Part shown: in pieces, positions 5,832 through 26,247 of the stretch
Layout of the letters: every line of letters begins with the position of its first letter
Numbering within the stretch: position 1 is the stretch's first letter
Source: a virus
Lineage: Duplodnaviria > Heunggongvirae > Uroviricota > Caudoviricetes
Strand: one strand, 5' to 3'
Length of the DNA stretch: 64,000 nt
IMG/VR virus record: IMGVR_UViG_3300035544_000169
Notes under the pieces: generated by a model
What the model was told of the DNA's origin: nothing
Databases searched by the model: none
The model's input: the letters and a program-made list of their open reading frames with translations, nothing else
Program-made: the position numbers and the translations under genes

Positions 5832-6635
5832 ATGTACACTAATCTAAGAATGGTAGAAATAGAAATACACAGCTATTGCAACAGAACATGCAGTTGGTGT
5901 CCTAATAAATATATAAATCGAAAGATAAAAAAGATACTGCCTAAGACTAATTATACAAATATTTTAAACGAACTCAAGTCCATCGATTATAAAGGAACAA
6001 TAAGTTACTCAAGGTATAATGAACCTTTTGCTTTGAAAGAAATTTTTGCTCAGTATACTAAAAAAGCAAGGTTGTTATTACCTGAAGCAAGACTTGTAAC
6101 AAACACCAATGGAGATTATCTTACAAACTCAATTTTAGATAGAGTTGAGATAGATGAGCTTTCAATAATGGATTACGACAACAAAGGTTTAGGCTACTGT
6201 ATTCAAAGAATGGAAGATTTAAATTTTGAGATAACAGAAATAATAGATAATAAGATATACGGTTTTGGTCACGACATGGAAGTAGTGTATGTTAGCGACT
6301 GGGCCAGACTGGAAAGCTTTGGAGACAGGGCGGGCTCTTTAGAAAAAGCAGATAAAAAAATAAGAAAAAAGAAATGTTATGAGCCTTTTCATTTTCTTGG
6401 GATAGACTACAACTGCAATGTGATGCCCTGCTGCAACTTCAGAAGCGATAATAATATCCACCAGGAATTTGTACTTGGTAACATAAAAAACGAAAGTATC
6501 AGGTCAATACTGGATTCTAAAAAGCTAAAAGACCTGCAGTTAAGACTTCAAAACTTAGACTTTCCCGAGCAGTGTAAATACTGCATCAAAGAAGAGGGAA
6601 GGTATACCAGGGAGAATCCCGGTATAAAATATTGA
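5832..6635 (+). CDS. Radical SAM domain protein, paralogue 1 (CxxxCxxC plus C-terminal Cys-rich twitch/SPASM-like region)
   Basis: HSYCNRTCSWCPN (Cx3Cx2C), NEPF (GGEP-like), TNTNGD (TNG ribose motif), and a C-terminal C...YNCNVMPCCNF...CKYC cluster. It is paralogous to ORFs 18551 and 19465. An RBS AAAGGGGG lies upstream. Confidence 0.75.
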   Translation: MYTNLRMVEIEIHSYCNRTCSWCPNKYINRKIKKILPKTNYTNILNELKSIDYKGTISYSRYNEPFALKEIFAQYTKKARLLLPEARLVTNTNGDYLTNSILDRVEIDELSIMDYDNKGLGYCIQRMEDLNFEITEIIDNKIYGFGHDMEVVYVSDWARLESFGDRAGSLEKADKKIRKKKCYEPFHFLGIDYNCNVMPCCNFRSDNNIHQEFVLGNIKNESIRSILDSKKLKDLQLRLQNLDFPEQCKYCIKEEGRYTRENPGIKY

Positions 6636-6654: not shown

Positions 6655-7335
6655 ATGAAAAAAATCGGAGTTTTTATTCCTGGTAGATTACAAAGCGAAA
6701 GGCTTCCAAACAAATTAGTACTTCCTTTAGGAGATACAAACCTTTGGGATATAGCCTGTAAAAAGCTAAACAGTCTGCCAGATAAGTATAATAAATATGC
6801 ACTATGCTACGACAAAGAGCTTGTAGAGATTGCTCAAAAATATGATAATCTAACAGTTATTTTAAGAGATAAAATTACGGCTTTAGTTGATGGCCCGCTT
6901 GAGTATATATTTAAAGACTTAAAAGAAGTAGAAGATACACATTTAATGTTTTTAAATCCGTGCCTTGCTTTTTTAAAAAAAGAAACAATCTTAAAGTCAT
7001 TAGAGACATTCGATAGTTTAGATGAAGATTACTGTGAGGGCAATTATGCAACAAGCGTAAAAGTTTATAAAAACTGGTTATTTAATAATCAAAATCAATG
7101 CTTAACAGATATAAATTATGAGAGGCTGACAACAAAAGAAATACCTGATTATTACGAAGCTGCTCACTGCTTTCATATTTTTAATAAAGATAATTTTTTC
7201 AAAGACGGGCAGATGCTAAAAGACAACCATTCTTTAATAGAAGTACCAAACAAAGAAGTAATAGATATAGACACCAAAGAGGATTATGAATTTGCTAAAT
7301 GGAAGTGGGAAAATAAGTCAACTTCTCCCACCTAA
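6655..7335 (+). CDS. Acylneuraminate/nonulosonate cytidylyltransferase family protein (NeuA/PseF/SpsF-like, CTP_transf_3)
   Basis: N-terminal IPGRLQSERLPNKLVLPLG (the R..S.R...K motif of CMP-sugar synthetases), a mid NPC..F block, and C-terminal IDIDTKEDYEFA, all matching CMP-NeuAc synthetase family signatures. Confidence 0.65.
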   Translation: MKKIGVFIPGRLQSERLPNKLVLPLGDTNLWDIACKKLNSLPDKYNKYALCYDKELVEIAQKYDNLTVILRDKITALVDGPLEYIFKDLKEVEDTHLMFLNPCLAFLKKETILKSLETFDSLDEDYCEGNYATSVKVYKNWLFNNQNQCLTDINYERLTTKEIPDYYEAAHCFHIFNKDNFFKDGQMLKDNHSLIEVPNKEVIDIDTKEDYEFAKWKWENKSTSPT

Positions 7336-7336
7336 T

Positions 7337-7560
7337 CAAAAACAAGATTAGAAGGGAGCTTGTTAAGTAATAAACCATACTCAGTATAGTCTATTAACAA
7401 GTTTTCGCACCTTCTTAAACCCACAAGTGGGTGATTCAGGATTAAGAAAGTTACAGGATGGTTGACTCGTGAATCTTTTTCACCCTATCCACCATGTTAA
7501 AACACAGTGGGTTACAGATTACTCTGTAAGCTGTATTAAACAGCTATGCTACATCGACAA
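7337..7560 (-). ncRNA. Predicted TnpB omega (right-end) RNA overlapping the tnpB 3' end and RE
   Basis: Structured, relatively GC-richer segment downstream of the tnpB stop, with hairpins CCCACAAGTGGG and TTACAGATTACTCTGTAA. Position and orientation fit the omega RNA of IS605-family TnpB. This is inferred, with no expression data. Confidence 0.3.
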
Positions 7561-8698
7561 AAGGATTTTCTATCTCAATACCCATAGCAAGTTTAGCTAT
7601 ATTTATACTGGCATTAGTATCAGCATTAAAAGTGTGACCATTAGTACATTCAAACAAGTTTTGTGTTTCTCTTATGCCTTCTTGTCCACATACGTGGCAT
7701 ATCTTAGATGTTTTGTAAGGATTAACTTCTTCAACAGGTAAGTTATTAAGATTAGCTTTATGTTTTACAAACTGTTTTAATTGATAGTAAGCCCAACTAT
7801 TTTTCTCATAGTTGTTTAGATTGTTATCGTTAGTAATATTCTTTCTAATATTCTTAAGGTTTTCAAATACAATAGTAGAATTATATTCTTTAGCTATCTC
7901 AATAATTCTATTAGTTATAAGCCAGTTAGTTTCTTTAGTAATTCTGTTTTCTTTAATCAGTGAAGTATTCTTACTATCAGACTTAAAAGCTTTACGCTTA
8001 CGTTTACTTTTATATCTCATACGTTTAAACCTTAACTCTTTACCTGATAGGTGTTCAGTATGCAAAATATTTTCACTGCTGTCTACTACACTAAACGTAG
8101 CTAGATTAATAATACCAAGGTCAACACCAAGATGAGTGTCTGTTTCTTTTCCTTTCACTTCGTATCTTAGTATAAAATTAAGATACCATTCACCATCTTG
8201 TTTATATAGCTCAGCTGTTTTAATCTCGTACCTATCATTATTAATATAATTTAAGTGGTAGTTGCTTAAAGAGATAGGTACGTAGATATTGTTATAAGGC
8301 TCAATGCTTATCTTTATAATATTAGTACCGTTATCTTTTCTTATAAGTTTAAAACTTTTATTCTTAACTAAATCAACAGGTACTTGATAGTTAAACTTAA
8401 CGTTATCTCTAAACTTTTTATGACAAGACTTATAAGATTCCATAGCTTTACGATTAGCTTCAATAGCTACCTGTGAAGGGAGGTTGTAATTATTCTTAAC
8501 AACTCTATATACATGCTTATGTGATTTAGTGTAAGCAGTAAGCCCCCAGTGTTTAATTATTTTGAGGGCTGAACGAATAGCTTTGTTCCAGTTACGAGAA
8601 AGCTTTTTTAGTTCATTACGTTTAATATTTGTAGGTTCAAATAATTTAATGTGGTGTAGTGTGATATGTGATTTACTCATTGTTATCACTTTCTTCAT
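7544..8698 (-). CDS. tnpB: TnpB (IS605 OrfB family RNA-guided endonuclease)
   Basis: RuvC-I LGVDLGIINLA, RuvC-II IVFENL, zinc finger CHVCG...C, and RuvC-III FNADTNASINIA. The true start is probably MSKSHI at 8680, which overlaps the stop of the upstream RHH ORF. Confidence 0.9.
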   Translation of the reverse strand: MKKVITMSKSHITLHHIKLFEPTNIKRNELKKLSRNWNKAIRSALKIIKHWGLTAYTKSHKHVYRVVKNNYNLPSQVAIEANRKAMESYKSCHKKFRDNVKFNYQVPVDLVKNKSFKLIRKDNGTNIIKISIEPYNNIYVPISLSNYHLNYINNDRYEIKTAELYKQDGEWYLNFILRYEVKGKETDTHLGVDLGIINLATFSVVDSSENILHTEHLSGKELRFKRMRYKSKRKRKAFKSDSKNTSLIKENRITKETNWLITNRIIEIAKEYNSTIVFENLKNIRKNITNDNNLNNYEKNSWAYYQLKQFVKHKANLNNLPVEEVNPYKTSKICHVCGQEGIRETQNLFECTNGHTFNADTNASINIAKLAMGIEIENPFVDVA

Positions 8699-8813
8699 AG
8701 TATTGAAATAAAATATAGCGAACCATTTCTGAAATGCCTATGCCTTTTTTGTTTCCTTCTTCATCTAGTTTATCTCTAAGATATTTAGGTAAAGAGACTT
8801 GTGTTCGTTCCAT
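8673..8813 (-). CDS. Small ribbon-helix-helix (CopG/Arc-like) protein encoded inside the IS, translationally coupled to tnpB
   Basis: 46 aa, MERTQVSLPKYLRDKLDEEGNKKGIGISEMVRYILFQYYEESDNNE. The RBS GAGGTGAT sits 5 nt before the ATG. The stop overlaps the tnpB ATG (ATGAGTAA). Confidence 0.5.
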   Translation of the reverse strand: MERTQVSLPKYLRDKLDEEGNKKGIGISEMVRYILFQYYEESDNNE

Positions 8814-8995
8814 TTTTATCACCTCATACTACTATTATACCACATTTTGTTGTAAAAGTCAAGTATTTAAACACTTAAATGTTACAAAATATTTAAAAAA
8901 GGATGGTGAAAAAATAGTAAGGATATTAAATTACGCAATTCCTCCCCACCCTAATCAGAGACAAGATTAGGATGAGGTTTCCTTGCTATAAATAA

Positions 8996-9286
8996 ATGAA
9001 ATATGTTGTAGATATAGATGGAACTATATGTACACAAGAGAAAAACTATCATGATGCTAAGCCAAAAAAAGAAAAAATAAAAATGTTTAACAGATTATAT
9101 GATGAAGGAAATACTATATGGTACTTCACAGCTAGAGGTACTGAAACTGAAATTGACTGGCGTTTTGTCACAGAAAAGCAGTTTGAGGACTGGGGTGTGA
9201 GGTACCATAAATTATTATTTAAAAAACCCTCTGCCGATGTTTATGTAGGAGATAGAATGGTTAATATAGAAAATTTTGAAATTTAA
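8996..9286 (+). CDS. Small HAD-like phosphatase-fold protein (DxDGT motif), paralogue of ORF 30450
   Basis: VVDIDGTIC (HAD motif I), ...WYFTARG..., YVGDR. It shares the pattern with 30450..30845. Confidence 0.45.
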   Translation: MKYVVDIDGTICTQEKNYHDAKPKKEKIKMFNRLYDEGNTIWYFTARGTETEIDWRFVTEKQFEDWGVRYHKLLFKKPSADVYVGDRMVNIENFEI

Positions 9287-10664: not shown

Positions 10665-10667
10665 GGA

Positions 10668-11233: not shown

Positions 11234-11524
11234 GTGATTATGAAAGTCTGCTCGCAAACCTCGAGGGCTTGCCCCGAGGAGCGTCAAGGAAGAATATATG
11301 TTGATAAGGAGTTAATAGAAACTAATATAAGTTGGTTTGAATTTAACGAAACAGATAAAACAGTAACGATTAAAAATGAGGCGATTGATATCGATGAACT
11401 AATAGCGATACCATTTATGATAACAGATGAAGACCTTGATAGGTATTACAACTCAACATTTTACGACCCTGACGAAAAAGAAAAAATAAACAAACCAGAC
11501 AATATAACAATGATAGAACTATAA
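11234..11524 (+). CDS. Small protein or gene fragment duplicating the C-terminal module of fibre ORF 11544 (start uncertain)
   Basis: ...EAIDIDELIAIPFMITDEDLDRYYNSTFYDPDEKEKIN matches the C-terminus ...SGAIDIDELLVFPQIIDQKQIDRIGGSPFYDPNRSVKID of ORF 11544. The annotated N-terminus overlaps a GC-rich hairpin and lacks a convincing RBS. Confidence 0.3.
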   Translation: MIMKVCSQTSRACPEERQGRIYVDKELIETNISWFEFNETDKTVTIKNEAIDIDELIAIPFMITDEDLDRYYNSTFYDPDEKEKINKPDNITMIEL

Positions 11525-11543
11525 AAAGAAAGGAGGTTTTAAC

Positions 11544-14500: not shown

Positions 14501-15359
14501 CGATGAAAACACACTTCCTGATGGTATAACAACAAATACTGATATGGATAATATAACAGGTGGTGGGAGTAAAACAGCAATTTTTAGCAATGTACCTAGA
14601 GAGATAGATATAGCTGCAAGCTTTAATGGTTATGATATAGCAACAAATGAAACTGGAGAGCAACAAATTAGTTCTATATTTACCCCAAGAATATATGCTA
14701 GTCATACTTTAACGGGATTAAGCGACTATGAAATGGGAATAAACTCAGATTATAAATCTGAAACAAAATACGAAACTGGTATAAACAAAAATTACCAGTC
14801 GCCAAGTTCTCAGATAATAGATGTTTTATCAAAGTCATACGATTCTCCTACACTCTACGAAATAGGTAAAAGAACAAATTATAAATCACAAACATTATAT
14901 GAAGCAGGCATAAACAAAACAGAAGGTCCGGCACCTTCACTACAGGATATCTTGGTATTGTATGACGAACCTATCTTAGTAAGCGGTAAATTCTCGCAAG
15001 GCATAAGGCTAGGTCTATCAGACTTAGAAATTGATATCAGCGATTTTACTGAATGGACAATGCATGTATTTAGAAGAGGTATAGACGATAGTGAGTTTAG
15101 AACAATATTTATCAACTCAGATGGAGAGGTCTATGTTGATAACGAAATAAACAATAAGTATGATGTCAGCTGGTTTGAGAGCACAAACGACAAAATAACT
15201 ATTAAAAGTGGAGCTATTGATATAGATGAGCTTTTAGTTTTTCCACAGATAATAGACCAAAAACAAATTGACAGAATAGGAGGGTCTCCGTTTTATGACC
15301 CTAACAGAAGTGTAAAAATTGATATGCCGGATTCAGTCGATATGGAGGTAATGCAATAA
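11544..15359 (+). CDS. Large tail fibre / host-recognition protein (1271 aa; lectin-like, FN3-like and short tandem repeat modules), TTG start
   Basis: The RBS AAAGGAGG precedes the TTG start. Modules are shared with ORF 3113. FN3-like segments are present (SFSLEWTNSDSLSGVDYVELY; AWYKWTN...). Internal repeats YKSETKYETGINKNYQSPS / TLYEIGKRTNYKSQTLYEAGINKTEG. The C-terminal module is shared with ORF 11234. Confidence 0.7.
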   Translation: MALNYDITSRDWDNTDVNVNITDPDGFNGIIDVDNDNASFSEGTLTDVEVVNDNLQLKQFDYFSGYEDSKNLEGRSSDISPTTDISTYKEGLGRNGGTSIAVEPSTTNLIDPTSIRGTRNISLNYIGIESGYYKYGISGTWSSGTYPYCMALPSVSFTGGVRYSAFIQYYTNVPEKFNHKIDAIKYVNEPLDYGERNFTTDLPNGDRLVQAMGFAYTSTTIQNGYLNMRPVSDGTSFNPDTDFIYFKKAQIEERAFCTSFVDGSRSSGQLKYPITIPKDNFTINLWAKWDWDTSLLPDRTVRLLQINDYYVNNSITIMRWKTDPSLGTWQKDSSGVWETQDICDIDNNSFQWNMITIKKDGNELSFYHNGSLSSTRILSNDFDTDIPYLALGYYGVSNETGFIYDELMIEKKAISDSQIQKIYNQQLPAKRMDNGTRQAPQLDLSAVNDVASSSISWKYYPYQANFDIINLTDEWIIELGNPSLSTTSEDGNKSVYFPGDGAYHRIKSNYRFNVEEGEEYKCRIRAKGDAGTSSMYVGLTANNNQNYRYFSNMSYVNVGESWTTYEGRLTIPAGITEVGIWIFNYVNNTGALWVDDITITKTSVVNSVDENLLTTIKTSIDNGSTWQTATNGGAIPNLPANPTTLDVRQTLDTNDTTLTPVLESLEVQIETPIKYKWSLDTTNPNTWETFTSNPLTQSQDGQWYLYTKAFNSDNQVVIDRQGTYDIDKTQPDVPNVNLINNTSHSFSLEWTNSDSLSGVDYVELYTEESDGSLNYVADIDIDGDSNTEPSIQLSNTDTSYTVDGLSEYTNYRYKVRVFDKAGNFSEDTYAEMITDDITEPIVGYSLNSRDWLNTNVDEVINVDDQAGSGVAEAWYKWTNSAVQPTDGWIVMGTTTNFATSQSQEGEWYLHIKATDNYNNTAYDYSGPYKIDKTAPVINSTNITIDSPTGVYDTYTATIEWFIEDQQDLSGVDRTEIGFYVDGIWHYDENTLPDGITTNTDMDNITGGGSKTAIFSNVPREIDIAASFNGYDIATNETGEQQISSIFTPRIYASHTLTGLSDYEMGINSDYKSETKYETGINKNYQSPSSQIIDVLSKSYDSPTLYEIGKRTNYKSQTLYEAGINKTEGPAPSLQDILVLYDEPILVSGKFSQGIRLGLSDLEIDISDFTEWTMHVFRRGIDDSEFRTIFINSDGEVYVDNEINNKYDVSWFESTNDKITIKSGAIDIDELLVFPQIIDQKQIDRIGGSPFYDPNRSVKIDMPDSVDMEVMQ

Positions 15360-17182
15360 TGGCGAAGATACTTAAAGATATATATGTGTCTTGGACCTGG
15401 GAAGGAGACGAAATGTTACTTGAGGGGTTTAATGTAGCAATAGCCCCTCAAGGCTCTGACCCTAACACAGAGGCAATAATTATACAAAAAACAAGTTCAG
15501 AAAAAACAGATATATTAAATAGAGGTACAACTCAGTACGAGCATATTTTTAGAAATATAACATTAAATAAAGACACAAACTACATAGCATGGGTTCAGTC
15601 TCTAACTGATGGCTTTGATTCAGAATGGCTGTCAGCAACAGGTATCAACGTTTCTGATGATGGCAAAGCTACAATAGCTACTACTGATGCTGACGGCAAC
15701 CCAATAACTTCTTCTGGTGGAGATGTTACTATAGATTCAGCAGGTATAACTGTAGTAAATGGAGCTTTTAAACTAGTAAACTCTTCAGGCTCAATCACAA
15801 TAGATAACACTGGTATAACAGCAAATGATGGCTCTAAAGACACATTCAAAATAGATAGTAATGGTAACGCATCATTTAGTGGCTCAATAAATGTAGGCTC
15901 AAATATTGCTGGTGTTGACACAAGTGCTGAAGATTTAGAAACAGTAAGTGGTTCTACAAGTAAATCTACTACAGCAGAAACTAACGCCAAAAAATATGCT
16001 GATGATGAATCTAAATGGGTTAGCACTAATCACAGATTTGAAGCAGATATTGAGGGCCCTGGTTGGGTCAGGATAGCTTCAAATCCAGGAGACAGAGCTC
16101 ACGCAACCTTCAAAATAAGAGATACAGATGGAGGAAAACATAACTCATTAGAATTCAAATTAGGTTGTAGTTACAACCAAAGAGGCAATGCTGATTTTCA
16201 AATGGTATCTTTTTCTAGATATTCAATTCTTTCAATCTCAGGAGTTAGGTTGCTAACTAATGGAACTTACGACCCTATGTATGTTGAGGTTTTCTTTACT
16301 GGTGCTACAAGTGGTGTAAGATGTGAGATAACAGACAATATACAAAGTAATGGATGGAATCCTGTTGAGTTTGATAACGGAGTAATACCTGCCGGGTATG
16401 CATCTACAGAATGGGATGTTGATGTAAATAGTGTAACAATTGATGGTAGAGGTATAAGAACCACAGGTTCTGATGGAGATTACTCCATACTTTCAGATGA
16501 CTCCCTTTTATTTTACGAAAATGGTTCAAGCATACCACATGATTATTCTAAAAGAGTAGCGTCTGGCATAGCACAAAACGGTGATTATATAAGTTTGGGC
16601 TGGGATAAGGCCCCAAAAGTTACAACAGCTATAAAACAGTTAAGAAGTTATACTGGTTCTTACTCAAACAGAAACCAAACATATTCCTGTTACCACTCAG
16701 CTCCAAGTGCCAGTGGTTTTTATGTTTATGGTAGGTCAGTAGTTTTGGGTGGTACTACTAAAAACACAATAAACACAAATATTAGTGCATCATCAATTCG
16801 CTCAGGTTCCGAATGTTATGGTTATACTTATACTCCAGGAAGTGCTGACTGGGTTTGGCCAGGAAGTACTGTTAATGGTTCCACATATTTGAGAGTAAGA
16901 TTTAATGTTACATCATCATCTTCAAATAATGTGCTAAGGTTTTATTATAAAAGAACTACAAGTTCATCTTGGATTTACCATAAAGGATACACAAACCCTT
17001 CAACTGGTGTCAGGGATATTGCAATGGACTTGGCAGCGGGAGAATATCATTTTAGATTCAATATATCATGTTCAACAGGTAGTCTTTCTATTAACGTTGT
17101 TGAGTGCGAGTATAGAGCCAGTGACTTAAATATAGCAACTGGTGAGGTAATGTGGTTAGCAATAGAGGGAGGTTCAGATTAA
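15359..17182 (+). CDS. Tail fibre paralogue 4 (shared N-terminal anchor; C-terminal beta-rich domain)
   Basis: N-terminus VSWTWEGDEMLLEGFNVAIAPQGSDP...WVQSLTDGFDSEW...DDGKATI. The block DTSAEDLETVSGSTSKSTTAETNAKKYADDESKW is shared with ORF 9330. The start overlaps the stop of 11544 (TAATGG). Confidence 0.7.
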   Translation: MAKILKDIYVSWTWEGDEMLLEGFNVAIAPQGSDPNTEAIIIQKTSSEKTDILNRGTTQYEHIFRNITLNKDTNYIAWVQSLTDGFDSEWLSATGINVSDDGKATIATTDADGNPITSSGGDVTIDSAGITVVNGAFKLVNSSGSITIDNTGITANDGSKDTFKIDSNGNASFSGSINVGSNIAGVDTSAEDLETVSGSTSKSTTAETNAKKYADDESKWVSTNHRFEADIEGPGWVRIASNPGDRAHATFKIRDTDGGKHNSLEFKLGCSYNQRGNADFQMVSFSRYSILSISGVRLLTNGTYDPMYVEVFFTGATSGVRCEITDNIQSNGWNPVEFDNGVIPAGYASTEWDVDVNSVTIDGRGIRTTGSDGDYSILSDDSLLFYENGSSIPHDYSKRVASGIAQNGDYISLGWDKAPKVTTAIKQLRSYTGSYSNRNQTYSCYHSAPSASGFYVYGRSVVLGGTTKNTINTNISASSIRSGSECYGYTYTPGSADWVWPGSTVNGSTYLRVRFNVTSSSSNNVLRFYYKRTTSSSWIYHKGYTNPSTGVRDIAMDLAAGEYHFRFNISCSTGSLSINVVECEYRASDLNIATGEVMWLAIEGGSD

Positions 17183-17685
17183 TGCCAAGTAGAATTTTAT
17201 ATGACAAAAGGAATCTTGCAATTTTGAGATGTCAGGCTAAGCCTTATGGTAGCGCTCCACTTCCTGATTTTGAGAATCTATGTATGTCCGCTAGAGTACC
17301 ATTAGACCAGAAGGAATTTTTAGATAGTGTTGTTTATTATGATGAGTTAATAACAATTGATGCTCAAGAAAAATTAAGAATTGTTAAAATTGATGGATTT
17401 ACAGAAGTGAAAGAAAAGCCGGTAATTGAAATTGAATCTTCAATGGATGAGCTCGATTTAAGTCTAAATAATAATTTAACTATAAGTGTTACTATCAAAA
17501 ATACTTTAGAGGCTGTAGACAACTTTGAAAAAATAGAGCTAAAAGTAAATGATATTCCATTTCCTGTAAACGTATCAAATAATTATGGAGAGAAAAGTAT
17601 TGAAATAAATGAAGCTGGCTCTTATGTTTTTGGAGTTGTAGATGATAGATTTTCTGATAATGAAATAACAATCAACGCTTACTGA
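17182..17685 (+). CDS. Hypothetical protein (possible fibre assembly/chaperone), probable start MPSRILY overlapping the fibre stop
   Basis: ATG at 17182 overlaps the TAA of fibre ORF 15359 (TAATG), a typical coupled fibre-chaperone arrangement. No conserved motif recognised. Confidence 0.4.
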   Translation: MPSRILYDKRNLAILRCQAKPYGSAPLPDFENLCMSARVPLDQKEFLDSVVYYDELITIDAQEKLRIVKIDGFTEVKEKPVIEIESSMDELDLSLNNNLTISVTIKNTLEAVDNFEKIELKVNDIPFPVNVSNNYGEKSIEINEAGSYVFGVVDDRFSDNEITINAY

Positions 17686-17702: not shown

Positions 17703-18548
17703 ATGGAGCCAAATATTATTAGGCCTTTGTTCTTTGATGAAAAGATAAACGATTTCGTTTTTGCTAATATAGTAGGGCATGAGCATGGTAATTACTTATT
17801 GCAAAAAAACAAGATAAAGTACAGCAAAGAGGATATACATTACCTTTATAATACGCATATCTATAATAATATCAAAAATATACTTGATTTAGAATATTTT
17901 GAGTTTAGATGGCTTCACCCAAGAAAAATTCGTGTTAGGCATGACCAGACACAAAAATTTTGGGATGAATTTGTTGAGGACAAATATCTTATGGAAACTA
18001 TAAATAATAAAAAAAAATTAGGTTTAGATATACTAGAAAACGGAACATATTGGCCTCTTGTTATAGCAAACAGAATGCCTCATGATGAACTTTTTATATA
18101 CGAAGGTAATCACAGACTTTATTCTATACAACTCTTAGTTGATGAAGGAATCTGGCCTGAAGATAAGAAACTGTTATGCCTAGAAGTAAAACGAGATTAT
18201 TTTCCTTTAAAGTCAAGGAGAGATTTAGCAAAAGTCGAAAGAAAAATAAAGCAAGCAGTTCCTTTTGTGGTACTTTATGGTGACAGAAACAATACAGATG
18301 AAATAAAAAAGATATTGGAAGAAAAATATTTTAATATTGACAATGTTAAATTTTATGACGACAGAAAAATACTGCTCGAAATAGAGGCAAAATATTATGC
18401 TGATTTATTATTTTTTAATCAGGCAATACCACATTGGATGAGAGATATTTTGTGGGATTACAAAAATAGGACTGGCGAAATGATAAAGCCTCATAAAATA
18501 ATTAACGACGAAAAAGAATGGAATAATTTTGTAGAAGAGGTGAGTTAA
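17703..18548 (+). CDS. ParB/Sulfiredoxin-fold (ParB-like nuclease/NTP-binding domain) protein
   Basis: LHPRKIRVRHDQ ... WPLVIANRMPHDELFIYEGNHRLYSIQLL matches the ParB N-terminal-domain core (GxHR motif). An RBS GGGAGG lies upstream. Confidence 0.45.
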   Translation: MEPNIIRPLFFDEKINDFVFANIVGHEHGNYLLQKNKIKYSKEDIHYLYNTHIYNNIKNILDLEYFEFRWLHPRKIRVRHDQTQKFWDEFVEDKYLMETINNKKKLGLDILENGTYWPLVIANRMPHDELFIYEGNHRLYSIQLLVDEGIWPEDKKLLCLEVKRDYFPLKSRRDLAKVERKIKQAVPFVVLYGDRNNTDEIKKILEEKYFNIDNVKFYDDRKILLEIEAKYYADLLFFNQAIPHWMRDILWDYKNRTGEMIKPHKIINDEKEWNNFVEEVS

Positions 18549-18550
18549 TA

Positions 18551-19423
18551 ATGATTTCTGGAATGAAATATTTAGAATTAGAGCTCCATAGTCAATGCAA
18601 CAGAAAATGTTCGTGGTGTCCTAATAAGGATATAGATAGAACTTTTTATGAAGAAATGAGCGATGAACATTTCACAAAAATATTAAAAGAACTTGGAGAA
18701 GATGGTTTTGGCCAGAATGTATTTGTGCAAATAGTTATAGGAAGATATCATGAGCCATTTTTAAATCCTGAACTTTTAAAAAAACGGACTCGGGAAATTA
18801 ATAAAACATTTCCAAACGCAAGAGTTGTTGTAAAAACAAATGGAGATTTTGTTAATGAGAAATCATTAGAAAATCTAATTATAGATAGGTTAAATATTAT
18901 GGATTATGATATGGAAGGAATGGATAAGTGCAAAAAAAGAGTTAAAGATTTAGGGTTCTCTATAATTGAAATTAAAGAAGACACAAAGACGATACATGCT
19001 AAAAGCAAAAATATTGACAAATTAATATATAAAGTTGACTGGCCAAAACATGCTCTACTTGAAGATAGAGGTGGAATTTTAGATGATGAATTTATATATA
19101 ATGAAGATAAGCCACTTTTATGGAGAGGAAAAAAAGAAAAAAGAGATTATGTATGCAGTGAACCTTCTTTGTCAATATATGTAGACTACAACGGGAATGT
19201 AATGCCTTGCTGTCATATGAGAAGCGACCATGATAAGCATAAAAGATTTATTCTTGGAAATATAAAAGAAAAAACTCTTCCAGAAATATATAATTCTAAG
19301 TTTGTTTTTGATTTGTACAACAAGTTTTCTACTGTAGAAACTATGCCTGAGATATGCAAGTACTGCAACAAAGATAGAGAGGGAAGAACACACGCGAAAA
19401 AAGTAAACGGGAATATTGTTTAA
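18551..19423 (+). CDS. Radical SAM domain protein, paralogue 2
   Basis: HSQCNRKCSWCPNK, HEPF, KTNGDF, C-terminal CSEP...YNGNVMPCCHMRSD...CKYCNKD. Same architecture as ORF 5832. Confidence 0.75.
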   Translation: MISGMKYLELELHSQCNRKCSWCPNKDIDRTFYEEMSDEHFTKILKELGEDGFGQNVFVQIVIGRYHEPFLNPELLKKRTREINKTFPNARVVVKTNGDFVNEKSLENLIIDRLNIMDYDMEGMDKCKKRVKDLGFSIIEIKEDTKTIHAKSKNIDKLIYKVDWPKHALLEDRGGILDDEFIYNEDKPLLWRGKKEKRDYVCSEPSLSIYVDYNGNVMPCCHMRSDHDKHKRFILGNIKEKTLPEIYNSKFVFDLYNKFSTVETMPEICKYCNKDREGRTHAKKVNGNIV

Positions 19424-19464
19424 GGGGGTAGTTTAAAATTTTATCAAATATAAAGAGGGTTGAA

Positions 19465-20358
19465 ATTGAAATTTTTAGTCAGTGCAATCGCTCTTGTGAG
19501 TGGTGCACAAACAAATATGTAGATAGAAGTTTTTATAAAGAACTTTCAGAAAATAAATATTTAGAAATATTAAATGAATTAAAAGAATTAGGCTTTAATC
19601 AGCCTAATAAAATATTAACATTAAATGGTTATTCAGAGCCAATGATAAATATTGAGATTCTCAAAAAAAGAGTTAATCAAGCAAGAGATATTTTAGATAA
19701 TGTAAGGATTGACATATCAACAAATGGAGATTTTATAAATTATAATAATTTAGATGGTTTAAATCTTAACAGGCTTCATATTATGGATTATGATATGAAG
19801 GGTATAAATTACTGGAAAAATAAATTAATGGATTCTGGCTGTGGTATTCTTGATGTTATTGAGTGTAAGTCAAAAATATTAGCAACCCATAAAGATGCAA
19901 CAAAAGTTATAGTTATTTATAATTGGCCAGAAAATAAAGAAATAGAGGACAGGGCAGGTATAATAACTGAAGATATATTTTATGAGGATAAAGAATCAAA
20001 TAAAAAGAGAAAGGTAAAATACAAAAATAATAGAGATAACAGAAGTGTTAAATGCTATGAACCATTTATAAATATATCAATTAACTATTTGGGGGAGGTT
20101 AATCCCTGTTGCCATATACGAACAGAACTAGAGGAATTTGAAGATATGTCTTTTGGGAATGTTTTTAAAAATACAGTCTATGAAATATTTTATTCCAAAA
20201 AAGCAAATAGGTTTAGAGATAAATTAAGAAAAGATGTCTCGGAATACCCCGATATGTGTAAGCGGTGCAACAAAATAAGATATAAAAAAGATGATTCTAT
20301 AATAGAGCATTTTGATAATCATTTAAAAAAAATAGAAAATGGTGAGTATGATGGCTAA
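19465..20358 (+). CDS. Radical SAM domain protein, paralogue 3 (no canonical start codon before the Cys motif; possible ATT start after RBS AAGAGGG)
   Basis: In-frame translation from 19432 gives ...NIKRVEIEIFSQCNRSCEWCTNK... SEPM ... STNGDF ... CYEP...YLGEVNPCCHIRTE...CKRCNK. The first ATG (19642) lies downstream of the CxxxCxxC motif. The RBS AAGAGGG is at 19453-19459. Confidence 0.5.
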   Translation: MEIFSQCNRSCEWCTNKYVDRSFYKELSENKYLEILNELKELGFNQPNKILTLNGYSEPMINIEILKKRVNQARDILDNVRIDISTNGDFINYNNLDGLNLNRLHIMDYDMKGINYWKNKLMDSGCGILDVIECKSKILATHKDATKVIVIYNWPENKEIEDRAGIITEDIFYEDKESNKKRKVKYKNNRDNRSVKCYEPFINISINYLGEVNPCCHIRTELEEFEDMSFGNVFKNTVYEIFYSKKANRFRDKLRKDVSEYPDMCKRCNKIRYKKDDSIIEHFDNHLKKIENGEYDG

Positions 20359-20572
20359 ATATAATGTTTTAGATAATGGAGATAGGCTGGTTATTTCAAA
20401 AGGTTATGAAAAATTAACAGATGAAAACGCTGAGCTAGCAAACGACCTAGACTACATTACAAAAGAAGAATTAATAGAGGCAGTTCATGTACTTGCAGCA
20501 GAAATAAGTAAGCTAAAAGGAGAACCATTCGATATTAAATTTACTTATGAGAATAAAAAAAATAAACTTTAA
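20339..20572 (+). CDS. Hypothetical small protein
   Basis: 77-aa ORF overlapping the end of rSAM 3. No motif. Confidence 0.3.
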   Translation: MVSMMAKYNVLDNGDRLVISKGYEKLTDENAELANDLDYITKEELIEAVHVLAAEISKLKGEPFDIKFTYENKKNKL

Positions 20573-20631
20573 GTTTTATGTTTAGTAATGTTTGATAAAT
20601 AAAACTAAAAAAAGAAGGGAGGTGACTATAG

Positions 20632-21225
20632 ATGCCATATAAAGAAAACTTAATAATTGCAATATCGGCAGGACATGGAGGAAAAGACGGGGGGGCTGTT
20701 GACCCTGAAGATAAAAAACATGATGATGATATTTATAAAGATGAAATCTACACAGAAGAGAGCGAAAAGAACTTAAAAGCTGCAAAAATGCTTAAAAGTT
20801 TGTTCGAACTAAAAACAGGGTTTGAAATAGTAATGATTAGGGATAAAGACGAATATGTAAGGCTTAGTGAAAGATGCAATATAGCAAACAATGCAAAGGC
20901 AGATTTATTTATTTCAATCCATGCTAATGCAGCAGCTGCAGAGAGTGCTAGTGGCTTTGAAACACTTCATTATCCTACCAGTACAGGAGGTAAAAAGCTT
21001 GCAGGATTAATACAAGAAGAAGTAATAAGGGACCTTAATCCTCGTGATAGAGGCCTTAAAGAAAGAAAGAACTTATACGTATTAAAACACACTCATATGC
21101 CAGCAGTCTTGATAGAGATGGGTTTTATTACAAATATAGAAGAAGAAAAGAAACTAAATAACGATGACTACTTAAAGTTAATGATGAACGATGTAGTCAA
21201 TGCAGTAATAAGATACAACAGCTAA
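20632..21225 (+). CDS. N-acetylmuramoyl-L-alanine amidase (Amidase_3, CwlC/LytC-type) – endolysin candidate
   Basis: IAISAGHGGKDGGAV ... DLFISIHANAAAA ... Glu and His ligands in Amidase_3 order. The RBS GAAGGGAGG lies upstream. Confidence 0.85.
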   Translation: MPYKENLIIAISAGHGGKDGGAVDPEDKKHDDDIYKDEIYTEESEKNLKAAKMLKSLFELKTGFEIVMIRDKDEYVRLSERCNIANNAKADLFISIHANAAAAESASGFETLHYPTSTGGKKLAGLIQEEVIRDLNPRDRGLKERKNLYVLKHTHMPAVLIEMGFITNIEEEKKLNNDDYLKLMMNDVVNAVIRYNS

Positions 21226-21269
21226 ATTTTTAATAGGGGGAGCATTTAATTAAAAAGGGTGACAAAAAT

Positions 21270-21893
21270 ATGAAAATAATAGCAGACGCAAAAACAAACC
21301 ATAATGGAAATATAGTATTTGCTAAAAAACTAATAGAGGAAGCCTTTATGGCAGGAGCAGATATTATATCCTTTGATGTTAAAGTTCCAGAGCTATCAAT
21401 CACTAGAGATAATTGGTTTAAATTGATTGATACTCCCTGGGGCCAGATGCTCAATATAGATTGTGAAAGAAGATTACAGCTCAAAAAAGAAGAACTGAAA
21501 GAAATAGATAGATATTCAAAAAAAGTTGGTATTAAATGGATGCCTAAAGTATATGACATTAAAAGTTTAAGTTGTGTTTTGCAGTTTGATATTCCATACA
21601 TAGAGCTTTGCAAAGAATTTAAGCAAAAAAGAGATTTAGTTAAAAGTGCAAAAGAAAGTAAAGTTCATATATTATTACCTTCATCTGAACTTAAATTCTC
21701 AGAAGGGTGTGAACTTTCCTTGTACTTTGGTGAAAGATATGCAGAAAAATACGGACTCACCTTTTTAGCTAAAAATAACACTGAGGGTTTCGGCATTATT
21801 AAAAGAGGCCTTACTTTAGATAAAAATATGTGGACTAAAGAAGATAACAATCTTAACAAAACAGAGTTTAAGAATTTTATTTTAAACTTATAA
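21270..21893 (+). CDS. NeuB/SpsE-like (sialic/nonulosonic acid synthase N-terminal TIM-barrel-like) protein, truncated or divergent (no SAF domain)
   Basis: MKIIADAKTNHNGNIVFAKKLIEEAFMAGADIISFDV parallels the NeuB IVAEIGCNHNGS...AKEAGVNAVKFQ. Colinear similarity continues downstream. Only 207 aa, lacking the C-terminal antifreeze-like domain. Confidence 0.4.
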   Translation: MKIIADAKTNHNGNIVFAKKLIEEAFMAGADIISFDVKVPELSITRDNWFKLIDTPWGQMLNIDCERRLQLKKEELKEIDRYSKKVGIKWMPKVYDIKSLSCVLQFDIPYIELCKEFKQKRDLVKSAKESKVHILLPSSELKFSEGCELSLYFGERYAEKYGLTFLAKNNTEGFGIIKRGLTLDKNMWTKEDNNLNKTEFKNFILNL

Positions 21894-21909
21894 AAGGAGG
21901 CAAATATAA

Positions 21910-22605
21910 GTGGAAAAAGTAATGACTAAGATTAGTGACGGCTTAATAAAAAATGAAGACTACAGGTTCAAAAACAAGGAAAAACTAAAAAGTAAAATAA
22001 AAGAGCTTGGCTTTGAAATCGAAGAAGCTCTACCCGACATAGTTAATATAGATAAAAAGGAAGTTTACTATACATTTAATGAGTATAAAGTTGCCGACAC
22101 CGAAAAGTATTTAAAGGTATTAGATGAGCTTAAGATGGGTGATGTTATAAATCAGGAGATTAATAATAAGCTCTTTGATATTACAAGCTTAAGTTTTTTA
22201 TCTTCGATTTATTCAATTATCTCTTACGACAAAAAAAGCGTAACATTTTATTTGTACAAAAAGGGCTTAAATGATGAACAGCTCAACAAACTTAAGAGTA
22301 TGACGAATACTGATGATTTAGTTTTAAGTGAATCTATTTTGGATAAAGCTTACCTTATAGGTCTTGATTACAATCTGGAAACAAAAAAGATAGAAGATAA
22401 TTTAAGACTTTATTTTACAGTAAACAGGGTAAAATACGAAGATGTATCAGAGCCTTTAACTGATGAGGACTTAAAGGAATTCGAAACAATATTAGATGAA
22501 AAAATAAATGATATTAAAACTAGTTTTGAAATAGAAAAAGAACTTGAAGCACTAGCAGTGGTTATAGAAAATGGAGCATTAAAACATTACAATTACTATT
22601 TTTAA
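21910..22605 (+). CDS. Hypothetical protein
   Basis: 231-aa ORF with an RBS AAGGAGG. No motif recognised. Confidence 0.4.
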   Translation: MEKVMTKISDGLIKNEDYRFKNKEKLKSKIKELGFEIEEALPDIVNIDKKEVYYTFNEYKVADTEKYLKVLDELKMGDVINQEINNKLFDITSLSFLSSIYSIISYDKKSVTFYLYKKGLNDEQLNKLKSMTNTDDLVLSESILDKAYLIGLDYNLETKKIEDNLRLYFTVNRVKYEDVSEPLTDEDLKEFETILDEKINDIKTSFEIEKELEALAVVIENGALKHYNYYF

Positions 22606-22619
22606 GGAGTGGAGAGGCT

Positions 22620-23729
22620 TTGGTAATCTTACAGGGGTTTTATTGGAATTGTCTTGAGAATTGGTGGGAGCATTTAGAGTATCTGGCTGAAGAGATAGCA
22701 AACAAGGGCTTTGATACTGTCTGGCTTCCACCTGTTTCAAAGGGCATGAATGGTGCTAACTCAATGGGCTATGATATTAAAGAACATTACAACTTAGATT
22801 CTAGGTTTGGTACTAAAGAAACACTCAAAAAACTAATAAATAAACTACATAAAGAAGATGTTAATGTCATGGCTGATTTAGTATTAGGCCATATGCTTGG
22901 AGGAGAGCTTGAGTACAATCCTTATTTTGATAAAAAAACATACACAAAATTTGAAGATGAATTATTTAAAAAAAATTACAAGCACTTCTGTCACGAATGT
23001 GGTGGCTGCGACAGCCGCAACTCCTTTGGAGAAACAATCTGTTATTACTCTGATGATAAATATATGGCAGATGGTTTAATAAACTGGGCAAAATGGCTCA
23101 AAGATGAGATAGGTTTCGACAGTTTTCGACTAGATAACATAAAAGATATGCGCTGGGATTTTACAAAAGTATTCACACAATATTTTAAGCTTGACACATT
23201 TATGATGGGCGAATACTGGGAAGGTGCAGATTCAAAACTAAATGAGGTTCACTCTTATAATCCAGACTTAAATTTATTAAATTTTCCCTTATTTTACAAA
23301 TTAAGAGATATGTGTATGAACCCTGATTTTGATATCAGAAAACTTGAAGAAATAAACAAAAATAAAAGGGTTAACTTCCTTGCTAATCACGATATTGAAA
23401 GAAGAGAGAGAAGTTCAAATAAGGATGCAATCTCAGAGAAAAAAGAGCTTGCATATGCATATATATTCTTCCAGGACAATCCAGTCGTTGTTTTCTGGGA
23501 TGATTACTTTAGATATGAACTGAAAGACCAAATAGATACTCTTATCGGAGTTAAAAAGAAAACAAAAAAAGAGGGCCTTGAGATTATCAAATCAACATGT
23601 AACATTTACCACGCTAAAAGAGGATGTTACGAACTAATAATCAACAACGGAGGCAACGCAGAAATGGTTCAGGGGTTTAAAATTGAGCCAAGGTCCTACA
23701 TTATCTTAAATGGAGGTGATAAGTTATAA
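22620..23729 (+). CDS. Glycoside hydrolase family 13 alpha-amylase-like catalytic domain protein (TTG start)
   Basis: All four GH13 regions are present: DLVLGHM (I), GFDSFRLDNIKD (II, nucleophile Asp), GEYWEG (III, acid/base Glu), FLANHDI (IV). The N-terminus has GFDTVWLPPVSKG. Confidence 0.8.
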   Translation: MVILQGFYWNCLENWWEHLEYLAEEIANKGFDTVWLPPVSKGMNGANSMGYDIKEHYNLDSRFGTKETLKKLINKLHKEDVNVMADLVLGHMLGGELEYNPYFDKKTYTKFEDELFKKNYKHFCHECGGCDSRNSFGETICYYSDDKYMADGLINWAKWLKDEIGFDSFRLDNIKDMRWDFTKVFTQYFKLDTFMMGEYWEGADSKLNEVHSYNPDLNLLNFPLFYKLRDMCMNPDFDIRKLEEINKNKRVNFLANHDIERRERSSNKDAISEKKELAYAYIFFQDNPVVVFWDDYFRYELKDQIDTLIGVKKKTKKEGLEIIKSTCNIYHAKRGCYELIINNGGNAEMVQGFKIEPRSYIILNGGDKL

Positions 23730-23787
23730 TTCAAAAGGGGCTATCACAGGGGGGACATTAAATATGTCTAGGAGGTAACTTGAGAAG

Positions 23788-24168
23788 ATGGTAGAATTCA
23801 CAAAATTCATTTCAGTACTAGGAGACACACTATCAAACCCTTATCTCTACTTGATAGCTATGTTAGTTGGTGTAATCTATTCGATAGTTAAAGTCATGAT
23901 TGAAAGAGAAAGAGAAAACTCAAAAGAGAAATCGGAGATGCTTGATAAAGTAATCTGTGATGCGGAAGAGACGAGAAAGCTCTTAGCTCAGTCACAAAAA
24001 AATCAGACTAAATTTGCACACACATTAGAGGTGCAGATGGGAGAACACCGTTATGCAATTAAAGAGATAGCAACAGCTGTAGCAGAAATGAGAAATGATT
24101 TAAACGATGTAAAGGTCGACTTAAAGGGAGAGATTGAGAGTATAAAAAAGGATATTGAGAGACGGTAA
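23788..24168 (+). CDS. Membrane-anchored coiled-coil protein (holin/lysis-accessory candidate)
   Basis: N-terminal TM segment LYLIAMLVGVIYSIVKVM followed by a charged coiled-coil region. Confidence 0.4.
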   Translation: MVEFTKFISVLGDTLSNPYLYLIAMLVGVIYSIVKVMIERERENSKEKSEMLDKVICDAEETRKLLAQSQKNQTKFAHTLEVQMGEHRYAIKEIATAVAEMRNDLNDVKVDLKGEIESIKKDIERR

Positions 24169-25406: not shown

Positions 25407-25419
25407 ATAGAAACAATAA

Positions 25420-25452
25420 AAGCCGCCCTTAAATGGACGGCTTCTTTTTTTA
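25420..25452. terminator. Bidirectional rho-independent terminator between convergent late (+) and early (-) blocks
   Basis: AAGCCG-N12-CGGCTT stem followed by CTTTTTTTTT. T-rich on the opposite strand as well. Confidence 0.65.
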
Positions 25453-25749
25453 TAGTAATGTTTTTATCTTTTTTAGAAATACCATAGCTGATTTATCCTG
25501 TTCTTCAACAATCTCTCCATTTTTAAACAATATAAGTTTCGGAAGTCCTTTTACGTTATACTCTTCAGCTAAAGCCTCAAAAGAGTCAACATCAACTGTG
25601 TAAATATCAAACTTATCAGCATACTGGGCCATTAACCTTCCTTTAAGTTGCTTACACTTTCCACACCATTTAGCATAAAAATCAATCAGAACATATTCAT
25701 CCTGGTTGATAAAATAATTAAACTCATCTATATTTGTAATCTCTATCAT
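25450..25749 (-). CDS. trx: Thioredoxin
   Basis: WCGKCK active site, ~100 aa. Probable start MIEITNIDEF (RBS GGGAGG) overlapping the stop of the upstream gene (TAATG). Confidence 0.8.
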   Translation of the reverse strand: MIEITNIDEFNYFINQDEYVLIDFYAKWCGKCKQLKGRLMAQYADKFDIYTVDVDSFEALAEEYNVKGLPKLILFKNGEIVEEQDKSAMVFLKKIKTLL

Positions 25750-26120
25750 TAATTTAATTCCTCCCATTGCTTAGTATCTTCATTAAAACTTTCTATTTTT
25801 AAATTCCTATCACTCATCCATGCATCAACTTCTTTTTCTATTTGTTTTTTATAGTCATCAACACCCTTTAGAGCATAACTTGTTTTAAGCTTATGCCATT
25901 TTTTAAATTCATCTGTCTTTACAAGTCTTTCAAGTGCAGCCTTTTTATTCTTAGCCTGAGTCCTGTGGTTTCTTGACTCGGCCACAGCCCCTGACTCTTT
26001 ATGTCTAATTCTGACACCAGTTTCTCGTGAGTTTTGGTTTTGTCCGCCCGGGCCACCAGAGCGGAATGTCTCAATTTCTAAATCGTTTTTAGTTACAGAA
26101 AATAGAAGCTCCTTACTCAT
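25749..26120 (-). CDS. ArfB/YaeJ-like peptidyl-tRNA hydrolase (RF-1 GGQ-domain protein); start probably MSKELLF at 26120 (the ORF is open to 26168)
   Basis: SGGPGGQNQNSRETGVRIRH GGQ motif ~23 aa from MSKE, and a basic C-terminal tail, as in ArfB. Confidence 0.6.
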   Translation of the reverse strand: MSKELLFSVTKNDLEIETFRSGGPGGQNQNSRETGVRIRHKESGAVAESRNHRTQAKNKKAALERLVKTDEFKKWHKLKTSYALKGVDDYKKQIEKEVDAWMSDRNLKIESFNEDTKQWEELN

Positions 26121-26247
26121 TGTTGTCATCATCCTCTTTTTTATAGTTTCTGCATTTACCCTTCTCATCTAAAAAAACTTCATCTGTCCAGCATTCGCCT
26201 AAATCATGATATTCGCAATCAGATGCATCGCAATAAGCTCTAGGCAT
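26113..26247 (-). CDS. Small Cys-rich protein (44 aa), overlapping the ArfB-like start
   Basis: MPRAYCDASDCEYHDLGECWTDEVFLDEKGKCRNYKKEDDDNNE. Stop/start overlap ATGAGTAA with the downstream gene. Confidence 0.3.
   Translation of the reverse strand: MPRAYCDASDCEYHDLGECWTDEVFLDEKGKCRNYKKEDDDNNE

Follow-up and report, generated by a model that had tools for sequence, protein, structure and literature searches.

The question raised by this stretch of viral DNA, 64,000 nucleotides of a tailed phage held as IMG/VR record IMGVR_UViG_3300035544_000169 (hereafter the window), is why genes for a NeuB-like protein and a glycoside hydrolase family 13 (GH13) alpha-amylase should lie directly behind that for an amidase endolysin at positions 20,632 to 23,729, with a NeuA-like gene well upstream. 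All four open reading frames (ORFs), at 20632, 21270, 22620 and 6655, are present at the coordinates given in a preliminary description made by a model from the letters alone. The answer that we favour, and regard as on balance probable, is a composite one: that the amylase is host-derived and acts on intracellular glucan, that the NeuB-like ORF (NeuB207) is non-catalytic, and that a pathway to a cytidine monophosphate (CMP)-activated nonulosonate is dispersed over the genome with its NeuB at a distal site. The four genes are as follows, with protein lengths in amino acids (aa).

20632..21225, + strand: endolysin, a single-domain N-acetylmuramoyl-L-alanine amidase (Amidase_3), 197 aa; Pfam PF01520, E 5.9e-48
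21270..21893, + strand: NeuB207 (ORF 21270), NeuB-fold protein, 207 aa, putative degenerate paralogue of the phage-type short NeuB, from its Pfam match, fold match and motif loss
22620..23729, + strand: compact GH13 alpha-amylase (ORF 22620), 369 aa, TTG start, no signal peptide, catalytic residues D172/E198/D258
6655..7335, + strand: NeuA/KdsB-type cytidylyltransferase (CTP_transf_3), 226 aa; Pfam E 1.8e-7, 31.7 bits (cut-off 22.6)

ORF 22620 matches the Pfam Alpha-amylase family PF00128 with an E value of 1.9e-16 (60.8 bits, cut-off 22) and 202 GH13 chains in the PDB at E<=0.01, the best of them being the Pyrococcus woesei alpha-amylase 1mwo (E 6.6e-32, residues 2-311). Regions I to IV are represented by DLVLGH (86-91), FRLDNIKD (169-176), GEYWE (197-201) and FLANHD (253-258), and an alignment of 19 family members shows no variation at D86, H91, R170, D172, K175, E198, H257 or D258; the Pfam score, the PDB match and these residues together bear out the earlier call of a GH13 enzyme with its four catalytic regions. 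The protein would thus be a retaining alpha-amylase in which D172 is the nucleophile, E198 serves as acid/base and D258 stabilises the transition state. It consists of the barrel, a domain B and a C-terminal stub of approximately 58 residues, with no added domain, and there is no hydrophobic N-terminus, residue 2 already aligning to barrel strand 1 of 1mwo. No NCBIfam equivalog level is reached (the best model, NF006970, gives 250 bits against a cut-off of 516), and the sequence appears to represent a distinct compact GH13 subfamily. A Cys/His-rich stretch in domain B (residues ~120-145), HFCHECGGCDSRNSFGETICYY, is conserved across this compact family; the P. woesei amylase has a Ca/Zn centre, and by analogy the stretch may be a metal site of that kind.

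The affinities of this protein point to a particular group of bacteria. Among 5.8 billion clustered proteins the closest sequences outside its own cluster (P0001) are the 365-aa chromosomal amylases of Halanaerobium saccharolyticum, H. congolense and H. hydrogeniformans, to which it is 63-64% identical; over the Halanaerobium chromosomal amylases as a whole the range is 62-64%. With one genome considered per species, the matches of at least 60% identity are all from Halanaerobium, other Halanaerobiales reach 41-43%, and other phyla 36% at most. The Halanaerobium gene is a chromosomal singleton lying between those for pyruvate-formate-lyase activase and RecQ. In a neighbour-joining tree ORF 22620 groups with metagenomic copies, at least one of which (P0016) is on a phage-like contig, and apart from the Halanaerobium clade; related copies are located on the phage-like contig L043 and on an unannotated contig of 209 kb (L042). 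The ratio of non-synonymous to synonymous substitution (dN/dS) is 0.07-0.09 relative to two relatives. The gene thus has the appearance of host-derived cargo under strong constraint, rather than of a fibre- or spike-type depolymerase, and the most likely host of the phage is Halanaerobium, a genus of salt-loving anaerobes that is dominant in hypersaline and fractured-shale habitats. The suggestion that a phage-encoded GH13 with its four regions intact is uncommon also holds for full-length genes, as 50,697 GenBank phage records yield 17 weak partial matches, none covering 80% or more of the protein.

Because the phage enzyme is descended from a host enzyme likewise without a signal peptide, its substrate is presumably intracellular. 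Late in infection it would cleave alpha-1,4-glucan, either glycogen or maltodextrin of the host, and thereby support the fermentative energy supply. The preliminary description had suggested, among other roles, a virion-associated depolymerase. Such an enzyme would aid adsorption by digesting the host capsule, and the position of the gene downstream of fibre-like genes is in keeping with this. Nothing else supports it: the protein is a bare catalytic barrel with no N-terminal anchor, beta-helix or fibre domain and no signal peptide, its 369 aa are close to the 365 aa of the host enzyme, of whose chromosomal gene it is a diverged copy, and nine non-structural genes intervene between it and the fibre genes. 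We consider this role very improbable.

The second member of the cluster is more unusual. ORF 21270 matches Pfam NeuB above the cut-off (E 3.3e-8, 33.7 bits, cut-off 22.1), over profile positions 1-117 of 241 only, and NeuB model TIGR03569 with E 4e-13, far under the cut-off. Structure prediction was needed because a phmmer search against PDB sequences found no match. The AlphaFold2 (AF2) model has a pLDDT of 80.7, with residues 140-173 unreliable (pLDDT <50), and Foldseek aligns it to NeuB 1xuu with an E value of 8.4e-14 and a TM(query) of 0.78; it also resembles PseI. The earlier NeuB-like call therefore stands on a fold match, and the protein is, as described, one of 207 aa that carries the N-terminal NHNG signature and has no SAF domain; it ends at the barrel. 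The SAF domain is also absent from the 268-292-aa NeuBs of the phage cassettes described below and from Leptospira 6ncs.

What ORF 21270 has lost are the catalytic motifs. We aligned three orthologues of 207-208 aa with 18 cassette NeuBs and three further NeuB-family proteins (P0033, P0039 and P0040). In ORF 21270 and its orthologues KFQ is replaced by SFD and K-x-x-S by ELCK, GMS and CxSxYP are deleted, and the metal-binding histidines are gone from all three (GYSGHE to AKNNTE, ERH to KRG); two segments of the barrel are deleted. The other 21 sequences, including all 18 cassette NeuBs, keep the functional motifs without exception. ORF 21270 is nearer to the cassette NeuBs (E 2e-28) than to the non-cassette P0039 and P0040 (E 1e-13 and 2e-10), and is 30% identical to an intact NeuB carried by a relative. 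Since KFQ, K-x-x-S, GMS, CxSxYP, SxH and ExH are all gone, ORF 21270 is not a minimal synthase. The alternative, that it is a shortened enzyme of NeuB type, an aldolase or synthase whose chemistry has changed, forming with the NeuA-like gene a self-sufficient minimal pathway in the window, would account for the retained NeuB fold, the NHNG motif and several barrel residues that are invariant in the alignment, and purifying selection. It is nonetheless quite unlikely, given that these catalytic elements are replaced or deleted in three of three orthologues, that the model is unreliable over residues 140-173, and that there is a separate intact NeuB in the relative.

Loss of the catalytic motifs together with two internal deletions might be read as decay into a functionless pseudogene remnant. 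Against this, the frame is intact and preceded by a Shine-Dalgarno site, the length is kept in orthologues that are 93% and 64% identical, and dN/dS is 0.18-0.22, indicating purifying selection, so that we hold a dead gene to be unlikely. The pattern is rather that of a repurposed paralogue, apparently non-catalytic, as distinct from both a minimal synthase and a dead gene; the product, NeuB207, would keep its barrel fold without NeuB-like metal or phosphoenolpyruvate (PEP) binding, and be either non-catalytic or re-functionalised and tied to the lysis block. The proposal of a remnant or minimal nonulosonic-acid pathway is thus upheld in part, with the NeuA-like gene and the cassette NeuBs speaking for such a pathway and ORF 21270, with every catalytic motif gone, speaking against its own place in it.

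The setting of these genes bears on both of these proteins. The region from 20.6 to 25.4 kb is the distal end of a late operon, and its remaining features are:

21910..22605, + strand: ORFan, 231 aa, confined to this phage group
23788..25406, + strand: four small membrane or coiled-coil proteins (126, 81, 146 and 194 aa), candidate holins or spanins, at the end of the late operon
25418..25445, listed on the - strand: GC-rich hairpin with T-runs and an 11-bp stem, where the + strand late genes and the - strand genes converge

The genes from the amidase to the transmembrane (TM) proteins form one + strand run with intergenic gaps of 15-59 bp, and Shine-Dalgarno sites precede all genes of the cluster. 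There are no + strand terminator-like sites between 17000 and 25406, and the hairpin is the sole strong one near the cluster. The amidase matches PHROG 435, endolysin, with E 8.9e-49; it has no predicted TM segment, and its dN/dS relative to relatives is 0.15-0.17. The ORFan has nothing in Pfam, PHROG, NCBIfam or PADLOC and just three matches among 1.84 billion representative proteins (two full-length relatives and one 44-aa fragment); its AF2 model, from a three-sequence alignment, has a pLDDT of 53, and its dN/dS is 0.10-0.14. The four small proteins, which match no Pfam family and are kept in one relative (L004), have in order one TM segment, two, one, and an N-terminal hydrophobic stretch, and are plausible holin or spanin candidates. 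The region would thus comprise an Amidase_3 endolysin, three cytoplasmic cargo proteins and then the putative holin/spanin membrane proteins. Convergent to it on the - strand are genes for a small GGQ-motif release-factor-type (RF-1 domain) protein (25749-26168) and a thioredoxin with a WCGKC motif (25450-25767), both also kept in L004.

Upstream, the cluster is delimited by a mosaic boundary at approximately 20390, which falls within a small ORF preceded by three other genes.

17703..18548, + strand: cassette-associated protein, 281 aa, with a conserved GTYWP...EGxHR core, possibly ParB/Srx-like
18551..19423, + strand: radical-SAM/SPASM protein, 290 aa; Pfam SPASM E 1.2e-12, Radical_SAM E 1.2e-8
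19438..20358, + strand: third radical-SAM/SPASM gene, likely ATT start, with an AAGGGGG ribosome-binding site 9 nt before the ATT
20339..20572, + strand: 77-aa ORF holding the boundary between a variable fibre/SPASM module and a conserved lysis/cargo block

Nucleotides 52-234 of the 77-aa ORF alone align to relatives, with 97.8% identity, and from these last two-thirds of the ORF through to the TM proteins identity to relatives is 93-99%. The products of the possibly ParB-like and SPASM genes directly upstream, by comparison, show 37-48% protein identity (the fibre-like genes were not part of this comparison). NeuB207, the ORFan and the GH13 gene therefore travel with the lysis genes and not with the fibre module, and it seems that the variable module has been swapped against a conserved lysis/cargo block. 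The third SPASM gene encodes its CxxxCxxC motif ahead of the first ATG, GTG or TTG, and the frame is open from 19432; ORF 19642 was considered as a truncated SPASM pseudogene and rejected, given this open frame and the likely ATT start behind a ribosome-binding site.

This arrangement invites a different explanation of the amylase, namely that it is a lysis accessory, held in the cytoplasm until the holin fires and then degrading alpha-glucan of the envelope, capsule or biofilm to help progeny escape. The gene shares a terminator-free + strand unit with the amidase before it and the TM proteins after it, and the block from the amidase to the holin candidates is conserved as a unit while the genes upstream of it diverge. 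Canonical endolysins also lack signal peptides, so that this feature of the amylase is compatible with such a role. On the other side, the enzyme is an unmodified type of copy of a host protein that likewise lacks a signal peptide, and it has gained neither a carbohydrate-binding domain nor any other. Late operons generally take up cargo at their ends, and in two related loci (L044 and L045) the nonulosonate cassette, too, adjoins endolysin genes. We saw no sign in this analysis of an alpha-glucan envelope polymer in Halanaerobium. A lysis accessory is a credible possibility, albeit one that we judge less than probable.

We turn next to the NeuA-like gene at 6655 and the pathway of which it would be part, for which three further features of the window are needed.

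5832..6635, + strand: radical-SAM/SPASM protein, 267 aa, partner of the cytidylyltransferase gene; Pfam SPASM E 4.5e-11, Radical_SAM
7317..8989, - strand: IS200/IS605-type insertion sequence (IS) element, 1,673 bp, with TnpB at 7544-8698 (-); PHROG 506 transposase, E 1e-34
8996..9286, + strand: mini-HAD phosphatase, 96 aa, of the 'capsule biosynthesis phosphatase' type, with HAD motifs DIDGT / TARG / KP / GD

The score of the CTP_transf_3 model, above its threshold, supports the identification of the NeuA-like product as a cytidylyltransferase. It also matches PseF TIGR03584 (E 1e-12, 48 bits, cut-off 205.7) and KdsB (25.7 bits, cut-off 193), so that no equivalog-level assignment to NeuA, PseF or KdsB is reached. 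The CTP-binding motif P-x-R-x-x-S-x-R-L-P-x-K is present, with IPGRLQSERLPNK aligning with IQARMGSTRLPGK of 6oew, and R11, S14, R16 and K20 are invariant. The protein database holds 265 relatives at E<=0.001, the best 120 listed being 53-68% identical (97% within its own cluster). A tblastn search of GenBank phage records gave no match at E<=1e-10. The profile of the mini-HAD matches the solved 'capsule biosynthesis protein' 9iqw (E 2.3e-17) and 1xpj (E 2.3e-11) in the PDB, and in other phages the mini-HAD is fused to the cytidylyltransferase.

Comparison of gene neighbourhoods in a prophage of a 4.7-Mb chromosome, an archaeon-labelled phage-like contig, 28 IMG/VR loci and four further large contigs shows that these genes belong to a recurrent cassette. 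It opens with a 230-343-aa protein that has the GTYWP...EGxHR core, followed by one radical-SAM/SPASM gene or two; next come the cytidylyltransferase, a mini-HAD (about 95 aa) fused to or overlapping it, and lastly a short NeuB of 268-292 aa without a SAF domain. This gene order supports the placing of NeuA-like and NeuB-like genes together in a predicted phage nonulosonate pathway. The cassette usually follows fibre-like genes and is near the endolysin, and a cupin, PF01050 (the mannose-6-phosphate isomerase C-terminal domain), is sometimes interposed between the HAD and NeuB genes. At least 550 copies of the short NeuB are present in IMG/VR. Within 6 kb of it, in the best 80 loci, a cytidylyltransferase is found in 51 and a HAD in 38, the cupin and SPASM genes in 16 each, and the possibly ParB-like gene in 15. 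A three-enzyme core is therefore common, with the SPASM and possibly ParB-like module marking a sub-clade.

The homologues of the 17703 protein adjoin SPASM genes in those 15 loci, and the 5832 SPASM-type gene likewise has the cytidylyltransferase as its neighbour in related loci. No member of the 17703 family matches any Pfam family, and its profile yields non-significant hints alone against the PDB (the serine kinase SbnI, E 0.6, and 1vk1, E 1.1); because it depends on the motif and these hints, the ParB/Srx label is a weak lead. In the Kdn route mannose-6-phosphate (Man-6-P) and PEP are converted to Kdn-9-P, then to Kdn, and then to CMP-Kdn (PMC6200933), and by analogy the cassette predicts a CMP-Kdn-like nonulosonate pathway. 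A sugar-6-phosphate and PEP would be joined by NeuB to an ulosonate-9-phosphate, dephosphorylated by the HAD enzyme and then CMP-activated, with the mini-HAD at 8996 and the cytidylyltransferase at 6655 providing the last two steps and the intact NeuB elsewhere in the genome providing the synthase.

Two other observations were made in the related loci. In one sub-clade (L011 5936-6637, L014 5835-6539, L017 8644-9342) the HAD/cupin position is occupied by a protein of approximately 233 aa without a Pfam match, whose WHxDN...HRG pattern may be that of an oxygenase-like tailoring enzyme, which would imply different sugar products. In a 191-kb phage the SPASM/cytidylyltransferase/NeuB cassette is immediately preceded by large unannotated ORFs; among them is one for a protein of 1,099 aa (L090 1781-5080) that unites two glycosyltransferase domains with several of methyltransferase type, a candidate for the missing transfer step.

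In the window the cassette is scattered. The order is SPASM (5832), cytidylyltransferase (6655), the IS element, HAD (8996), fibre-like genes (9330-17685), the possibly ParB-like gene (17703), SPASM (18551), SPASM (19438), the 77-aa ORF, amidase, NeuB207, ORFan and GH13; the fibre-like region includes large fn3/Ig-domain proteins, one of them a PHROG tail protein match. Synthase, phosphatase and cytidylyltransferase occur together in many related loci, whereas the window holds the phosphatase and cytidylyltransferase as its only intact members, and a search within it for an intact NeuB remnant or a cupin found none. An intact 273-aa NeuB (Pfam E 9e-77) is present about 100 kb away in the relative IMGVR_UViG_3300033747_000022, next to genes for TnpB (directly upstream), a single-stranded DNA-binding protein (SSB) and RNA ligase, in DNA without homology to the window. 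The pathway is therefore probably complete at the level of the genome, dispersed rather than reduced to ORF 21270, which is not its synthase.

The IS element has subterminal, hairpin-forming direct repeats (7324-7351 and 8943-8970). A relative with 97% identity (L013) has no element here: its cytidylyltransferase stop codon and HAD start codon share the four letters ATGA, and it is exactly within this 4-bp overlap that the element has inserted. The insertion adds five codons (STSPT) to the end of the cytidylyltransferase and abolishes translational coupling. We considered whether the element disrupts the NeuA-like gene and rejected this, as both ORFs stay whole. A 49-aa ORF directly upstream of TnpB (8673-8822, - strand), where TnpA would be expected, looks by eye like a small DNA-binding protein. 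TnpB copies are at three separate sites in these related jumbo phages (L094 4613-5743, L004 19946-21067, and the window), suggesting that IS605 elements are active in the lineage and may have scattered the cassette; IS605/TnpB elements lie at two of the presumed breakpoints.

A wider synthesis can be attempted, which we offer as speculative and consider possible rather than probable. The phage cassette of short NeuB, cytidylyltransferase, mini-HAD and sometimes the mannose-6-phosphate-isomerase cupin would make a CMP-activated Kdn-like nonulosonate, which in a sub-clade the SPASM and possibly ParB/Srx-like enzymes would modify or install on virion fibres or on the envelope of the infected cell. 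Remodelling by IS605/TnpB would then have left a duplicated NeuB, now non-catalytic and working with the lysis/amylase block. A phage-made sugar on the fibres or serving as a mimic of host glycans, as the preliminary description proposed, is possible.

Several points weigh against the composite reading that we prefer. A role at the lysis stage would account equally well for the position of the GH13 gene, with the endolysin on one side and the holin-like genes on the other, and for its presumably late expression. The host assignment is based on a single horizontally transferred gene. The intact NeuB has been seen only in the relative, outside the 64 kb available from this phage; the Kdn assignment leans on a cupin that is missing from the window; and no glycosyltransferase was identified within it.

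The window has near-identical relatives in a 188-kb ENA contig (L004) and in IMG/VR UViG_3300033747_000022 of 203.6 kb (L012, L013), from which it follows that it comes from a jumbo phage with a genome of about 200 kb. A blastn search with positions 20000-24000 against the 50,697 GenBank phage records gave zero matches, and the DnaE-type DNA polymerase III alpha subunit (42370-45522, - strand; PHROG 405) is 43% identical to its counterpart in Moorella phage MTATph1; close cultured relatives of the phage are lacking. No hits came from Rfam or tRNA scans over the full 64,000 nucleotides, and a PADLOC scan gave nothing meaningful.

Some of this is of a kind already known: the GH13 gene is a further auxiliary gene for a viral carbohydrate-active enzyme (CAZyme), and neuA/neuB clusters of phages have been noted before (bioRxiv 10.1101/655167). 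The combination appears to be new, as we found no earlier description that brings together a cassette with accessory SPASM and possibly ParB-like genes, the scattering of that cassette by TnpB elements and a conserved NeuB pseudoenzyme in a lysis block; in the literature on phage NeuA/NeuB genes, no description of the SPASM/cytidylyltransferase/NeuB cassette was found. The locus provides a concrete case of a jumbo phage apparently taking a carbohydrate-degrading gene from a host genus that can be named, and indicates that its "NeuA/NeuB" genes belong to an extensive family of nonulosonate cassettes carried by uncultivated phages. It is also a probable case of a cassette broken up by TnpB elements, with an enzyme paralogue turned into a conserved pseudoenzyme. 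Should it be true that a phage-made sugar decorates fibres or the host surface, there would be consequences for host range, superinfection exclusion and the evasion of immunity or defences.

Comparison with known systems places each part of the locus. The Halanaerobium chromosomal amylases (P0002, P0003 and P0006; 365 aa) have the same domain layout, regions I-IV and Asp/Glu/Asp triad as ORF 22620, share its Cys-rich domain B, and also have no signal peptide; the phage enzyme differs in being phage-encoded, in its lysis-proximal late operon, and in forming a separate clade. Relative to the P. woesei enzyme 1mwo its domain C is much shorter, with only the stub following the barrel. GH13 alpha-amylases have been reported among the auxiliary genes of mangrove-soil and rumen viromes (PMC6460857), likewise host-like glycoside hydrolases on phages with a presumed boost to carbohydrate breakdown; unlike these, the gene described here has a nameable donor genus, a near-complete jumbo-phage genome and a location in a lysis module.

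The NeuB/PseI synthases (1xuu, 8h2c and 6ncs) have the TIM-barrel and the N-terminal IIAxxxxNHNG in common with ORF 21270, which has no metal histidines, PEP-binding lysine and serines or SAF/AFP domain and is short of two barrel segments. The Kdn pathway of Bacteroides thetaiotaomicron and Prymnesium parvum consists of a Kdn-9-P synthase, a HAD Kdn-9-P phosphatase and a CMP-Kdn synthetase (PMC6200933), the same three enzyme classes as in the phage cassette, a subset of which adds the mannose-6-phosphate-isomerase-type cupin. The phage versions are distinguished by NeuBs without SAF, by a 96-aa phosphatase of the 'capsule biosynthesis' rather than the KdsC type, and in one sub-clade by the added radical-SAM/SPASM and possibly ParB/Srx-like genes.

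A viral precedent is in the Lake Biwa genome LBVG_26, where a polysaccharide cluster with neuA, neuB and neuC was read as serving cell-surface alteration (bioRxiv 10.1101/655167). Nonulosonate genes are phage-borne in both, although the cassette here has HAD, SPASM and possibly ParB-like genes in place of neuC, capD and pgl, adjoins the fibre genes, and in this phage is dispersed, with a degenerate paralogue. Finally, the inserted element shares with TnpB-only IS200/IS605 elements the TnpB ORF, the subterminal hairpin repeats and an empty site in a near-identical genome, but unlike a typical element of this type it lies inside a jumbo-phage late operon, in a 4-bp ATGA overlap, with other copies elsewhere in the relatives.

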